36,373 bases of DNA from assembly GCF_054482525.1 (NCBI RefSeq), contig NZ_JBTHVG010000006.1; one strand, 5' to 3'. Source of the DNA: a plasmid. Position numbers: made by a program. Numbering within the stretch: the stretch's first letter is position 1; every line of letters starts with the position of its first letter. Positions 21,001-24,000 of the stretch are shown here, piece after piece.

Positions 21001-24000
21001 AACCTGGTCAGACTCCAGCAATACATGAACAAAAAGTTCAAAATGACGGCACAAAAAACGCTGGATATTACGCAACAATTACGTGAAAAATATAAAGCGA
21101 TTACTTATAACCGCTCTGATTGCTCATATCTTTCTGATGAACAATTCAGCGAAGCGCCGCAGGTTATCGATGCCCTGAAATCAATCTTTCCTCAGTCGCT
21201 GGATATTGATTCTTCACGTAAAAGCAAAGCGTTTAACAGTGCAAAGGTGACTGCGCATACTGCGATAATCCCGACCGCCAGTGTGCCTGATGTTAACGCA
21301 CTCAGCACCGACGAGCGCAATGTTTACCTGGCGATCGCACAACACTATCTTGTTCAGTTCATGCCTGAAAAAGCATACCAGGAAGTATCGGTTGCCATTC
21401 AGTGTGGTGATGAGTCGTTCTATGCCCGTGCCAGAAAAACAACTGACAGCGGATTTGAGGCGTTTCTTGGCGCGGAAACCACAGATGAAGGTGAATCAGA
21501 AGATAATGATGATTCCGCTTTTGAACTGCTCTGTAAAATTCGCACAGGAGAAACACTGACGACAAAAGAAGTTATTGTTAATGAGAAGAAAACAACACCG
21601 CCGCCGTTATTCACCGAAGCCTCCTTGCTTGCTGCGCTTGTTCGTGTCGCGGATTTTGTCACTGATCCAACAATTAAAAAATTGTTGAAGGATAAGGATA
21701 AAGACAAAAAAGATGAACATGGTGGCATTGGTACGCCAGCTACCCGCGCAGCCATTCTGGAAACGCTGAAGAAAAGAAACTATATCACGCTGGAAAAAGG
21801 GAAACTTATTCCTACTGATACCGGATATGCGCTTATTGATGCCCTGCCTGGTATAGCGGTTAATCCTGATATGACAGCATTATGGTCTGAAAAGCAGGCT
21901 GCCATAGAAAATGGCGACCTGACGATTGAACGGTTTATTAATGATCTGTACTGTGAACTAACAGACATGATTTCTGATGTTGACCTGGGCGAGATGAAGA
22001 TTGAACCCGCTGCGCCAGCAGGGCAGTTTCAACGCCTGGACTCTCCCTGCCCTTCCTGTGGTAAACATATTGTTATCAGGCCGAAAGGTTATTTCTGTAC
22101 CGGATGTGAATTTAAAATCTGGAGTGAGTTTTCTGGTAAGAAAATCACCCAGGCACAGGCCGAAAAACTGGTTAAATCAGGGAAAACCGATTTGATTAAG
22201 GGATTTAAAAAGAAAAGTGGTGGAACGTATGATACAGTTCTTGTCCTTGAGGATAAGAAAACAGGGAAACTGGGTTTTCCGGCAAGGGCTAAGAAGTGAA
22301 AACAAAGCAGGAATGGCTTTTTCAGTTAAGAAAATGTACATCAAGAGATACTCTTGAAAAAGTTATTGAGATTAACCGTTACAAACTGCCTTTATCAGAA
22401 TCGGAGGCATTTTATTCTGCCGCAGATCATCGCCGAGCAGAACTGGTGATGAATAAACTTTATGATAAGGTGCCTTCCGGCGTCTGGAAGTACGTACACT
22501 AAATAAGAGGATTAATTATATGAGCGAACTGACTAAAGAAGATGAATACGGCATTATCAGCCGTACTATGATGAATATTCGTTCATTGCGTGTTTTTGCC
22601 CGTGAAGTTGATTTTGAGCAATTGCTCGAAATGCAGGAAAAACTGAACGTTGTTGTTGAAGAACGTCGTGAAGAGGCTGAACGTGAAGCGGCTGAACGCC
22701 AGGAACTTGAAGCCAAACGTCAGCAGGCCATTGAATACATCATATCTTTAGGTCTTGATCCCGAATCACTCCTTGCTCCTGTAACAGCAGATACAGTAAA
22801 AACCAGGCGGAAAGCCAAAGGCGGAGTAAGAAAGGCTAAATACCGCTTTAAGGATGAAAATGGCGAGATCAGAGAATGGTCTGGTAATGGCAAGCGTCCG
22901 CTTGCTTTACAGAAGCTGCTTGATGAGGGGCATTTCATGGAAGATTTCCTCATTGAGAAGACTAAGCCGGAACAGGCAGAATAACCCGCCAGGTATACAT
23001 CACACAGACATACACATAGGTATGTCTGTGTGACATACCTATGTACAGTGCCAGATGGCGTTGCTACGTGAAAAATAACCTACCCTACCCCTGCTTTTTT
23101 CGCAGATTTTACGTAGCACACCGTTGCTATAGCCTTCATCTAAAAAGCTGAATGTCCTTTTCTGTCGCTGTTGCATTTTAATTCACTGAAAAATATTGAG
23201 TAATGAAAATGCCGGTAACGCGTCAAGCTGTTGGCCAACGCGACAGGCAGTATTGGAAGCAACAAAAAAATGAAAGAAAAATCCCTCAAATGAAGGAGAA
23301 AAAACGGAACTACAGCCGAACGACAGACACAAAAAAACCCGACTGGTAATCGGGCTTTTTTGCGTTTTCCAGTCTTGAGTTGGTGGCTCTGACCGGAGAA
23401 GGTTACTCTACACCTAACGTTTACATTTTATTCACTATGGTGCTGTAAAGCAACTAAATGTGGTTAAGGAACCACATTTAGTTGTGTAACGGGTGTTTTG
23501 TGTAGCGTATAATCAGTCAGTTAGTCATGTAGTTGGCTTGCAATCCTGCTGTTCCCGTATCTGCGGGTATGAACGATTTTAAAGTCCTGGCTGGATAAAC
23601 AGGTGGTGCTGTATTCGGTGCTCTGGCAGGAGGAGGTCACTCTACACCTAACAATGCGAGAGAGCCGTTGTGACAGGCAGTGTATGAGCAAGCAACGGTG
23701 ATTTCCTCCAGTTTTACTGGAGAAACGGATGATTAATATGTTAATCATCGTTCTCAGAGCTGTGGTCGCCGTTGCAAACGCGCTGATTGCAGTTCTGGAA
23801 CTGATCCGCCAGTTCATCGATTGATGACAACGGAAACGTAACTAAGGGCAGGAAGTGAACCGCTTCCTGCCCTTTAACAAAAAAGGAGGATTTATGGATT
23901 TTATGAGCATTTTGGGGCGCTGTTTACTTCTTCCTTTCCCTGTTGCGATGTTTGTCGGTTGCCTGTTTCCTGGCATCGATGATCGCTTATCCGGAATGCT

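Follow-up and report, generated by a model that had tools for sequence, protein, structure and literature searches.

The type I logic of the locus described here is the same as that well known from tisB-istR1, zorO-orzO, and shoB-ohsC, whose sequences and toxins are unrelated to it. In divergent systems of this kind, as outlined in PMC5397157, a trans-encoded small RNA (sRNA) lies beside the toxin gene and pairs with a lengthy 5' untranslated region (UTR) of the toxin mRNA, which needs processing before translation. The agrB-dqlB family was defined in 2016 (PMC5066626), and about 53% of IncX plasmids have been reported to carry it. For the module of pOXA-48 (IncL; PMC12365149), toxicity, rescue by the antitoxin, compensatory mutations of base pairs, and post-segregational killing have been demonstrated, and for that of pOXA-484 (IncX3; PMC12317039) toxicity and plasmid stabilization. 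Membrane toxicity of DqlB has been shown for the proteins of these two plasmids, and expression of agrB as an RNA of approximately 85-90 nt with a neutralizing role for the pOXA-48 and K-12 homologues only (PMC12365149, PMC5066626). The K-12 homologue belongs to the chromosomal dinQ-agrAB locus of Escherichia coli (PMC3567139, PMC5066626), which has an SOS-linked role.

We analyzed a window of 36,373 nucleotides (contig NZ_JBTHVG010000006.1 of assembly GCF_054482525.1), which is the backbone of an IncX4 mcr-1 plasmid, and focused on the region flanked by hns (22520-22984) and a parA-like gene (24487-25134). This region very probably represents an agrB-dqlB type I toxin-antitoxin (plasmid addiction) module (probability roughly 0.93), for which a role in plasmid maintenance is proposed. 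The agrB-dqlB finding itself has already been described, and only the palindrome that separates the two promoters is undescribed.

A predicted AgrB-family sRNA and a dqlB toxin gene in divergent orientation

The features of the region are as follows.

23329..23418, minus strand: agrB-like antitoxin sRNA gene, about 90 nt (Rfam RF02891; predicted 5' end at G23418/U23417)
23331..23362, minus strand: intrinsic terminator of the sRNA, a GC hairpin at 23338-23354 (CCCGACTGGTAATCGGG) followed by a U-run (terminator scan, alignment with AgrB terminators, and fold)
23386..23418, minus strand: repeat copy 1, corresponding to the agrB-like sRNA's 5' antisense tail (single-stranded)
23425..23453, minus strand: putative agrB promoter read from the sequence, with -10 TAAAAT (plus-strand 23425-23430), a 17-nt spacer, and -35 TTGCTT (plus-strand 23448-23453)
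23451..23484, no strand assigned: perfect palindrome and candidate operator, 15-nt arms CAACTAAATGTGGTT / AACCACATTTAGTTG with a 4-nt loop, 100% complementary
23508..23513, plus strand: dqlB promoter -10 TATAAT, with a weak -35 TGTAAC (23485-23490) at a distance of 17 nt
23520..23728, plus strand: 5' UTR (209-nt leader) of the dqlB mRNA, with +1 placed at G23520 by homology to K-12 dinQ
23535-23549, plus strand: leader element 1, mapped from dinQ
About 23577, plus strand: counterpart of the dinQ +44 processing site, mapped from dinQ
23620..23652, plus strand: repeat copy 2, the site within the dqlB leader that agrB targets, with element 2 inside it
23626-23638, plus strand: leader element 2, mapped from dinQ
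23700-23711, plus strand: leader element 3, mapped from dinQ
23719-23722, plus strand: Shine-Dalgarno (SD) sequence GGAG within the hairpin 23706-23711/23717-23722
23729..23824, plus strand: dqlB open reading frame (ORF), 31-aa hydrophobic predicted toxin MINMLIIVLRAVVAVANALIAVLELIRQFID
23844..23874, plus strand: hairpin after dqlB with a 12-bp stem, homologous to the dinQ terminator hairpin

The Rfam AgrB model matches 23417..23329 on the minus strand over its entire length (positions 1-84 of 84) with 58.7 bits (gathering threshold 40, E = 6e-9); this is the single AgrB match, and AgrB is the only Rfam family above threshold in the whole window; ohsC reached only 20.9 bits (gathering threshold 50). 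K-12 agrA and agrB, used as controls, score 106-108 bits with the same model. The minimum free energy (MFE) fold of the sRNA (-34.7 kcal/mol, z = -4.7) is predicted to consist of a largely open 5' tail with one weak 4-bp hairpin, a stem-loop, and a terminator hairpin, and this agrees with the AgrB architecture of unpaired 5' tail, internal stem-loop, and Rho-independent terminator. The internal stem-loop is retained in 15 agrB homologues and includes one G-C/A-U covarying pair; MAFFT/RNAalifold analysis of these 15 genes recovered the internal stem only, because indels misaligned the terminator. The sRNA terminator is flanked by both an A-run and a T-run, and could thus also halt plus-strand read-through from hns.

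On the other side of the promoters, the 31-codon ORF scores 70.6 bits with the DqlB model NF041473 (DinQ_rel; cut-off 35, residues 1-31 of 31) and 25.2 bits with the DinQ equivalog model NF041472, below its cut-off of 30, which places the toxin in the DqlB model; 10 of 13 residues are identical to the DinQ core. The same protein is annotated as dqlB (WP_021534057.1) in the 100%-identical NZ_CP082794. The statement in the preliminary description that no ORF explains the organization has therefore to be withdrawn: this ORF begins 76 nt downstream of repeat copy 2 and is annotated as dqlB in identical RefSeq plasmids. For the 59-aa ORF further downstream, neither a Pfam nor an NCBIfam family was detected. 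The toxin is now annotated by PGAP, but the antitoxin sRNA does not appear in the gene table of PLSDB, where RNA genes are not listed.

The -10 element of agrB is invariant and the TTGC of its -35 element is conserved across 7 related modules, and K-12 agrB has an analogous TTGCAA-17-TAGTAT promoter. The -10 of dqlB is kept at the same place in 12/12 dql/dinQ loci examined (TATAAT, or TATACT or TATGAT in two) and is followed by a conserved GTTAG start, in agreement with the conserved -10 reported for the family by Kristiansen 2016 (PMC5066626). A consensus promoter scan flagged neither the agrB nor the dqlB promoter, and both -35 hexamers are weak. The TATAAT at 23508-23513 had been recorded before and is present; that it is the toxin promoter, that a toxin ORF follows, and that repeat copy 2 is an antisense target had been missed.

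The leader and the ORF show DNA homology to chromosomal dinQ, and the positions of elements 1-4 were taken from PMC5066626 and transferred onto the window by this homology. By homology and predicted folds, the leader has the features of the dinQ type, namely the conserved -10, four mutually exclusive elements, an SD hairpin, and a terminator. In the predicted fold of the full-length leader, 23535-23549 pairs with 23626-23638 and the SD is sequestered (a 1:2 duplex and a 3:4 SD hairpin), whereas in an alternative fold with an open SD, 23629-23638 pairs with 23700-23709 (2:3), matching the published dinQ model. The MFE structure of the processed form keeps the SD paired, and opening it costs 6.2 kcal/mol here versus 1.9 in the K-12 +44 control; because the known open state of this positive control is also mispredicted, thermodynamic folding is uninformative on the SD switch. 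The terminator scan scores the hairpin after dqlB on the minus strand, and the same AAGGGC...GCCCTTTAAC arrangement is found at the terminator of K-12 dinQ.

Considering these features together with the E. coli dinQ/agrB model, the module may work as follows. Two promoters within 23419-23519 would fire in opposite directions, giving leftward an AgrB-family sRNA of roughly 90 nt (23418 to 23329) and rightward, from the TATAAT, a dqlB mRNA starting at about 23520, with its 209-nt leader and a 31-codon ORF for a putative membrane-damaging peptide. By analogy with dinQ, the full-length dqlB mRNA would be translationally inert, with element 1 at its 5' end paired with element 2 and the SD held in the hairpin formed by elements 3 and 4. 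Removal of the 5' end would free element 2 to pair with element 3, which would open the SD, and binding of AgrB to element 2 would let the SD hairpin re-close and create an RNase III substrate. When the plasmid is lost, the supply of antitoxin RNA would be lost as well and the cell would be killed.

In 10 of 12 other plasmid loci, agrB lies upstream of dqlB in the same divergent layout, and in the remaining two, including the validated pOXA-48 locus, agrB was found by the direct-repeat signature described below. The pOXA-48 module likewise is plasmid-borne and comprises a divergent agrB sRNA and dqlB with a 31-aa DqlB, but it has been validated by experiment, whereas the present module is predicted from sequence; the pOXA-48 agrB is too diverged for the Rfam model, whereas the agrB of the window passes. 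The IncX3 modules (pOXA-484, PMC12317039; represented here by pNDM5-CNEC001) belong to the same IncX family and have the same architecture, with an AgrB that passes the Rfam threshold (47.8 bits in pNDM5-CNEC001) and a dqlB half that is 81.6% identical in DNA, but they adjoin transposons, whereas the present module lies between hns and parA. K-12 dinQ-agrAB has a homologous sRNA of the same Rfam family, the same divergent layout, and a homologous leader in which elements 1-4, the SD hairpin, and the terminator are likewise present, and the GUUAG start of sRNA and mRNA is common to both loci. It differs in having a LexA box (TACTGTATGATTATCCAGTT) over the promoter and two agr copies, neither of which is found in the window. 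The LexA motif CTG-N10-CAG is absent from 23419-23519, and its only occurrence (23587-23602) lies inside the transcribed leader; LexA control as in dinQ was thus rejected, as the promoter has no SOS box.

Direct repeats as the probable antisense-pairing sequence

A repeat search of the window detected a 33-nt direct repeat with copies at 23386-23418 and 23620-23652, 234 nt apart and identical at 29/33 positions (88%), which confirms the direct repeats noted in the preliminary description. The 18-nt core GGTYACTCTACACCTAAC, whose search had been suggested there as a check, occurs exactly twice in the window at <=3 mismatches (0.01 expected), and two or more matches were obtained in 0/100 shuffles. 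Of the earlier suggestions for this arrangement, that of a small RNA gene holds for copy 1, which is the 5' end of the minus-strand sRNA, whereas copy 2 is the antisense target of this sRNA in the toxin mRNA leader. Over the 33 nt, the sRNA tail and mRNA 23620-23652 can form 29 Watson-Crick and 2 G-U pairs with 2 mismatches (predicted duplex energy -57.7 kcal/mol). Since the antitoxin is encoded divergently and does not overlap its target, antisense tail and target appear as a direct repeat in the DNA. What appears as direct repeats is, accordingly, the sequence through which the sRNA and mRNA of a known plasmid addiction module pair. In pOXA-48, the sRNA and the toxin 5' UTR are complementary over about 33-35 nt, which likewise shows up as a direct DNA repeat, although the pairing sequence there (GGGAACAYCTAAACAATTGA) is unrelated to GGTYACTCTACACCTAAC, and the pairing core of IncX3 modules (ACTCTCTACAACTGAC) differs as well.

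Two 33-bp repeats at a distance of 234 bp, in a part of the plasmid devoted to maintenance and close to a partition operon, might also be taken for sites acting at the DNA level, such as iterons, a platform for protein binding, or a site-specific resolution site. Comparison of 13 agrB/toxin pairs makes such a role of the repeats extremely improbable. Identity in the 22-nt core averages 20.2/22 within a locus but 14.7/22 between loci, and six of the variable core columns are the same in both copies in 13/13 pairs, so that the copies change jointly between loci; the mean duplex energy is -58.9 kcal/mol for cognate and -42.5 kcal/mol for non-cognate combinations. Moreover, differences between copies are skewed toward keeping G-U wobble pairs in the predicted orientation (37 versus 13), a substitution bias that matches RNA pairing in one orientation. 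Copy 1 lies within an sRNA supported by a covariance model and copy 2 within a toxin leader homologous to dinQ, there are two copies only and none elsewhere in the window, and the module is not accompanied by a gene for a DNA-binding protein. For a res/cer-type site one would look for its recombinase close by or for a core accompanied by accessory sites, and no recombinase gene was found beside the region in the identical annotated plasmid. The resolution-site and iteron readings of the repeats were dropped, as RNA pairing accounts for the repeats, which co-vary as pairing partners, and no recombinase is adjacent; the protein-binding platform proposed earlier is not supported for the repeats, but is the leading candidate reading of the palindrome.

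A simple rule is that a 30-35-bp direct repeat around divergent promoters upstream of a tiny hydrophobic ORF marks a trans-encoded type I antitoxin at the DNA level; with it, agrB is recovered also in loci that the Rfam model misses.

The palindrome between the two promoters

The perfect hairpin with a 4-nt loop noted in the preliminary description is present, but its arms are 15 nt rather than 14. No other perfect palindrome in the window is as long (arms in 60 dinucleotide shuffles did not exceed 11), and this one sits exactly between the two divergent promoters, bracketed almost exactly by both -35 positions. An intrinsic terminator was rejected (AT-rich stem, no T-run after it on either strand, and no call by the terminator scan), and an Rfam match to 'cow-rumen-4' is due to chance (23.8 bits, gathering threshold 48.5). 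The palindrome is lineage-specific and lies outside the conserved family core: most dqlB lineages have an unrelated inter-promoter sequence in which it is absent, and both pOXA-48 and the IncX3 modules, the latter with a different inter-promoter sequence, are without this 34-bp element. Among 72,556 plasmids, 622 records matched the palindrome, a number near that of the records with the complete module (roughly 600); every inspected locus lay inside an agrB-dqlB module, and 600 of 609 places in E. coli genomes were on plasmids. No external operator family was found for it in these plasmids and E. coli genomes at the sensitivity used, and within the window its half-sites do not recur beyond chance (4 matches at <=3 mismatches, equalled in 10/100 shuffles).

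Our best guess, held at somewhat less than even odds, is that the palindrome is bound by a dimeric regulator which controls either or both of the promoters. A tentative and rather doubtful proposal is that the palindrome, symmetrically placed between the two -35 elements, serves as operator for a dimeric regulator of host or plasmid origin (possibly CRP, at an unusual 8-bp-spaced site) that would set the ratio of toxin to antitoxin transcription. The paper on PixR, a known IncX4 regulator, gives no binding motif and makes no mention of the agrB-dqlB region.

It is also possible, if less than probable, that the palindrome has no regulatory function and is a quasi-palindrome perfected by hairpin-templated (template-switch) mutation, persisting because it is harmless. 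Template switching is an established mutational mechanism and would yield a single 'compensated' pair without selection, and such neutrality would fit the absence of the palindrome from most dqlB lineages, the single mismatch already present in the commonest IncX4 variant, and the decay of arm matches to 13/15 and 11/15 in the pO45, S. diarizonae, and Pantoea copies, where toxin and antitoxin are intact. However, mean pairwise divergence of the palindrome is 0.090, roughly one half of the values for the core-promoter segments on either side (0.179 and 0.148), and in pMB9_3 one paired double change restores 15/15 although it weakens the agrB -35; together with the near-exact bracketing by the two -35 positions, these observations argue against neutrality.

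With regard to CRP in particular, coupling of toxin/antitoxin transcription to cAMP through a CRP-type site appears quite unlikely. Each half (AAATGTGG) agrees with the CRP consensus half-site AAATGTGA at 7/8 positions, but the center, at about -52.5 for dqlB and -50 for agrB, is off the standard activator positions of -41.5 or -61.5, and the TGTG core is lost in the Pantoea copy. The CRP consensus is TGTGA-N6-TCACA (PMC10187061); this dyad is not found in the palindrome, which reads TGTGG-N8-CCACA (half-sites 7/8 including flanks) and hence has an 8-bp spacer instead of the canonical 6, although a class of CRP sites with an 8-bp spacer has been put forward (Barber 1993, as cited in PMC10187061). 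If the palindrome is indeed an operator, it would add a layer of transcriptional control, in place of the LexA control found at chromosomal dinQ, that is undescribed for any agrB-dqlB module; the element is of modest specialist interest.

Module integrity and IncX4 plasmid persistence

A correctly identified module might still be weak or decaying and have no addiction function on IncX4 plasmids, whose stability would then depend on HicAB/TsxAB and on partitioning. For the IncX4 plasmid pHNSHP23, only pir, tsxB, and mcr-1 are listed by the authors as insertion-free in the Tn5 input library (PMC8725589); agrB is left off this list, so a strict requirement for it was not noticed there, although an unannotated gene of 90 bp is easily overlooked. 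The 2 mismatches in the antisense duplex, the weakness of both -35 elements, and a related Shigella copy with a 10-nt target deletion and an altered toxin C-terminus point in the same direction. Nevertheless, we consider a decaying copy unlikely, as the module has kept an intact ORF, SD, -10, terminators, and pairing, hundreds of IncX4 plasmids encode the identical toxin protein, and conservation within the module is highest in leader 23653-23728 (3% mean pairwise difference); furthermore, the IncX3 homologue stabilizes a test plasmid (PMC12317039).

In the mcr-1 IncX4 plasmids, which are successful worldwide, the spacer between hns and parA is thus not empty but very probably holds a second addiction module besides HicAB/TsxAB, which may help explain the persistence of these plasmids. 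Plasmid curing would trigger killing by DqlB unless agrB is supplied, as demonstrated for pOXA-48, and the module would therefore matter for plasmid-curing strategies.

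An agrB-dqlB module in the hns-parA spacer

The hns-parA spacer holds a known system, an agrB-dqlB type I toxin-antitoxin module; what a preliminary description had observed here is correct and already known. The direct repeats it reported were recovered by a repeat search as two 33-nt segments (23386-23418 and 23620-23652; 29/33 identical, 234 nt apart), and the 18-nt core occurs at only two sites in the window at three or fewer mismatches, compared with 0.01 expected. An Rfam scan of the spacer matched minus-strand 23417..23329 to AgrB (RF02891) over the full length of the model (58.7 bits, gathering threshold 40), AgrB being the only Rfam family above threshold in the whole window. 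Because the first repeat copy lies inside this match, it represents the 5' tail of the antitoxin sRNA, whose predicted fold (z = -4.7) leaves that tail open ahead of a stem-loop and a strong terminator hairpin. The view that no ORF accounts for the organisation did not hold: a 31-codon ORF at 23729-23824, labelled 'DinQ-like type I toxin DqlB' in RefSeq NZ_CP082794, encodes a peptide (MINMLIIVLRAVVAVANALIAVLELIRQFID) that scores 70.6 bits to NF041473 (cut-off 35) and falls under the cut-off of the DinQ model. The dqlB leader and ORF show DNA-level homology to chromosomal dinQ, and the second repeat copy, 76 nt 5' of the dqlB start codon, occupies a position equivalent to the agrB-dinQ pairing site (G88-A119 of dinQ mRNA; PMC5066626). 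The dql family, including plasmid members, was defined by Kristiansen et al. 2016 (PMC5066626).

The sRNA gene lies apart from its target and on the other strand, so the stretch of the sRNA that is reverse-complementary to the mRNA appears in the DNA as a direct repeat, and divergent antisense pairing fully explains the repeats. The earlier suggestion of a small RNA gene is half right: it fits the first copy, and the second is the target in the dqlB leader; a resolution site and a protein-binding platform are both rejected as readings of the repeats, which antisense RNA pairing accounts for.

The window is an IncX4 mcr-1 plasmid backbone, 100% identical in the spacer region to pKP4823_mcr (NZ_CP082794), with the gene order topB, hha, hns, spacer, parA-like ATPase and small ribbon-helix-helix protein.

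Features downstream of dqlB
23894-24073, plus strand: 59-aa ORF (MDFMSILGRCLLLPFPVAMFVGCLFPGIDDRLSGMLMSVAVGCLSWYVTRPKNRQTKAA), directly 3' of the dqlB terminator, with a strong AAGGAGG ribosome-binding site
24487-25134: parA-like gene
25209-25478: ribbon-helix-helix protein gene

The identical RefSeq IncX4 record leaves the 59-aa ORF unannotated, and Pfam and NCBIfam searches gave no match; it has 78% identity to the annotated hypothetical protein WP_000347021.1, likewise 3' of dqlB on IncX1 plasmids, and possibly accompanies the module as a conserved small membrane protein. Repeats of 43 nt with many GTGACATAC/palindromic units (22996-23038 and 24334-24476), one copy just 3' of hns and three at 50-nt phasing immediately 5' of the parA-like and ribbon-helix-helix protein genes, are probably the partition centromere/operator. 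With the single copy on one side and the three phased copies on the other, the toxin-antitoxin module and the 59-aa ORF look like an insertion into the array. Between this ORF and the par repeats, a 19-nt inverted repeat (24096-24114/24221-24239, 95% complementary) surrounds 106 nt of C-rich sequence.

Predicted transcript starts and leader switch

Published element coordinates and a K-12 alignment place the dinQ +1 at the G of GTTAGC (position 1166 of the K-12 locus, L002). The TATAAT reported earlier is present at 23508-23513, and we infer that the dqlB mRNA starts six bases after it, at G23520. All loci examined share this hexamer, in the form TATACT or TATGAT in two of them, and the GTTAG that comes after it.

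Promoter and leader elements
TTGCTT-17 nt-TAAAAT, start G23418, minus strand: putative agrB promoter, with a -10 invariant in seven related modules
23535-23549, plus strand: element 1, placed from the published dinQ switch
23626-23638, plus strand: element 2, inside the second repeat copy
23700-23711, plus strand: element 3, placed from the published dinQ switch
23719-23722, plus strand: SD GGAG, fourth of the switch elements placed, in a CUCCAG/CUGGAG hairpin

ViennaRNA folds the full-length dqlB RNA with a 1:2 duplex and a closed SD, and in a 5'-truncated RNA with the SD forced open, element 3 pairs with element 2, matching the published dinQ model; this open form costs 6.2 kcal/mol relative to the MFE, which likewise misses the open K-12 +44 control (1.9 kcal/mol). 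By analogy with dinQ, the primary transcript would be inert, 5' processing would activate it, and agrB would re-close the SD and trigger RNase III cleavage.

Both the toxin mRNA (23520-23524) and the sRNA (23414-23418) begin with GUUAG at their inferred 5' ends. In the predicted full-length fold, the 5' end of the mRNA pairs with the agrB target (23648-23652), so the toxin mRNA would carry a built-in mimic of its own antitoxin. Segment 23585-23604 (TCCTGGCTGGATAAACAGGT) includes CTG-N10-CAG, and its homologue on plasmid pTF2 was predicted to be an 'SOS box' of dqlB (heterology index 11.64; PMC12211044). In the window this segment falls within the conserved leader, some 65-85 nt into the inferred transcript, which makes RNA structure a likelier role for it than that of a LexA operator.

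Antisense covariation among related loci

Comparison with related plasmids covered 12 further plasmid loci (IncX1, X3, X5, IncI1, IncFIB, IncL and others) and the K-12 locus. In 10 of the 12, AgrB scored above the Rfam threshold just 5' of dqlB and was again divergent from it, and in the remaining two the antitoxin was located by its direct-repeat signature (29/30 and 23/30 identities). The pairing core varies by lineage (GGTYACTCTACACCTAAC in the window, GAGAGAGTTCTTATCTAAC in K-12, ACTCTCTACAACTGAC in IncX3, GAACTGTCTATAACTGAC in one IncI1 plasmid), and its two copies agree inside each locus: over the 22-nt core, copies from one locus share on average 20.2/22 positions and copies from different loci 14.7/22, and at six of the variable columns the copies are identical in 13/13 pairs. 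For cognate pairs the predicted duplex energy averages -58.9 kcal/mol, versus -42.5 for non-cognate pairs, and 37 transition differences between copies keep a G-U wobble in the predicted orientation versus 13, although these counts are not phylogenetically independent. Of the in-silico evidence for antisense pairing, this intermolecular covariation is the strongest.

The Rfam model misses the antitoxins of the experimentally validated pOXA-48 and a related plasmid (L013), which a simple direct-repeat search of the dqlB leader against upstream DNA recovers (L014, pOXA-48, 1369-1398/1557-1586; L013, 1349-1378/1541-1570). Some IncX1-type plasmids carry two tandem modules with differing pairing cores (L005, 1531-2026 and 2193-2682; L009, 614-1108 and 1275-1764). 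Their cognate duplexes are predicted to be stronger (about -52 kcal/mol) than cross duplexes (about -38), which suggests that the two are mutually insulated. In a Shigella flexneri IncX1/X3 plasmid (L003), a 10-nt deletion lies within the agrB target (about 1806-1843) and DqlB has a different C-terminus in a longer annotated CDS (about 1919-2020), with the perfect palindrome retained; this module is possibly decaying or retuned.

A perfect palindrome between the promoters

The palindrome reported earlier is perfect and has a 4-nt loop, as described, with arms of 15 nt rather than 14 (23451-23484; 100% complementary). It is unique in the window and the longest perfect one there, and 60 dinucleotide-preserving shuffles gave no arms longer than 11. 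It is the single element outside the agrB-dqlB family description, lying in non-transcribed DNA between the inferred starts, with a 3-bp overlap with the agrB -35 and its centre about -50 from the agrB +1 and -52.5 from the dqlB +1. Its matches follow the module: they were found in 622 plasmid records, a number close to the roughly 600 records with the whole module; in an E. coli collection, 600 of 609 places were on plasmids, and all inspected loci were inside the module. Between the promoters of other dqlB lineages the sequence is unrelated, and some of these lineages have shorter palindromes of their own (8-9-nt arms).

Arm matches in palindrome variants
Window: 15/15
Shigella (L003): 15/15
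Commonest IncX4 variant: 14/15 (T23483G)
pMB9_3: 15/15 (paired A-to-C and T-to-G change)
pO45 and S. diarizonae: 13/15
Pantoea: 11/15

The palindrome diverges about half as much (0.090) as the core-promoter segments next to it (0.148-0.179). Its most likely role is that of a candidate operator for a dimeric regulator (probability about 0.4). Within this reading, a CRP site is improbable: each half (AAATGTGG) resembles a CRP half-site, yet the halves are spaced by 8 instead of 6 and their placement departs from the canonical one. Nearly as probable as the operator is a quasi-palindrome that has no function and was made perfect by template switching, and other structural roles share what is left.

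On pOXA-48, toxicity, rescue by agrB, compensatory base-pair mutants, essentiality of agrB by Tn-seq and post-segregational killing have been demonstrated, and 53.3% of IncX plasmids were reported to carry a dqlB homologue (PMC12365149). The IncX3 pOXA-484 locus is toxic, agrB-neutralised and plasmid-stabilising (PMC12317039). The literature yielded no experiment with the IncX4 copy, and the insertion-free list of a Tn5 study of IncX4 pHNSHP23, comprising only pir, tsxB and mcr-1 (PMC8725589), is a mild caution on how strongly this copy acts. What interest the region retains is confined to the palindrome and to the antitoxin being missing from the gene table consulted.
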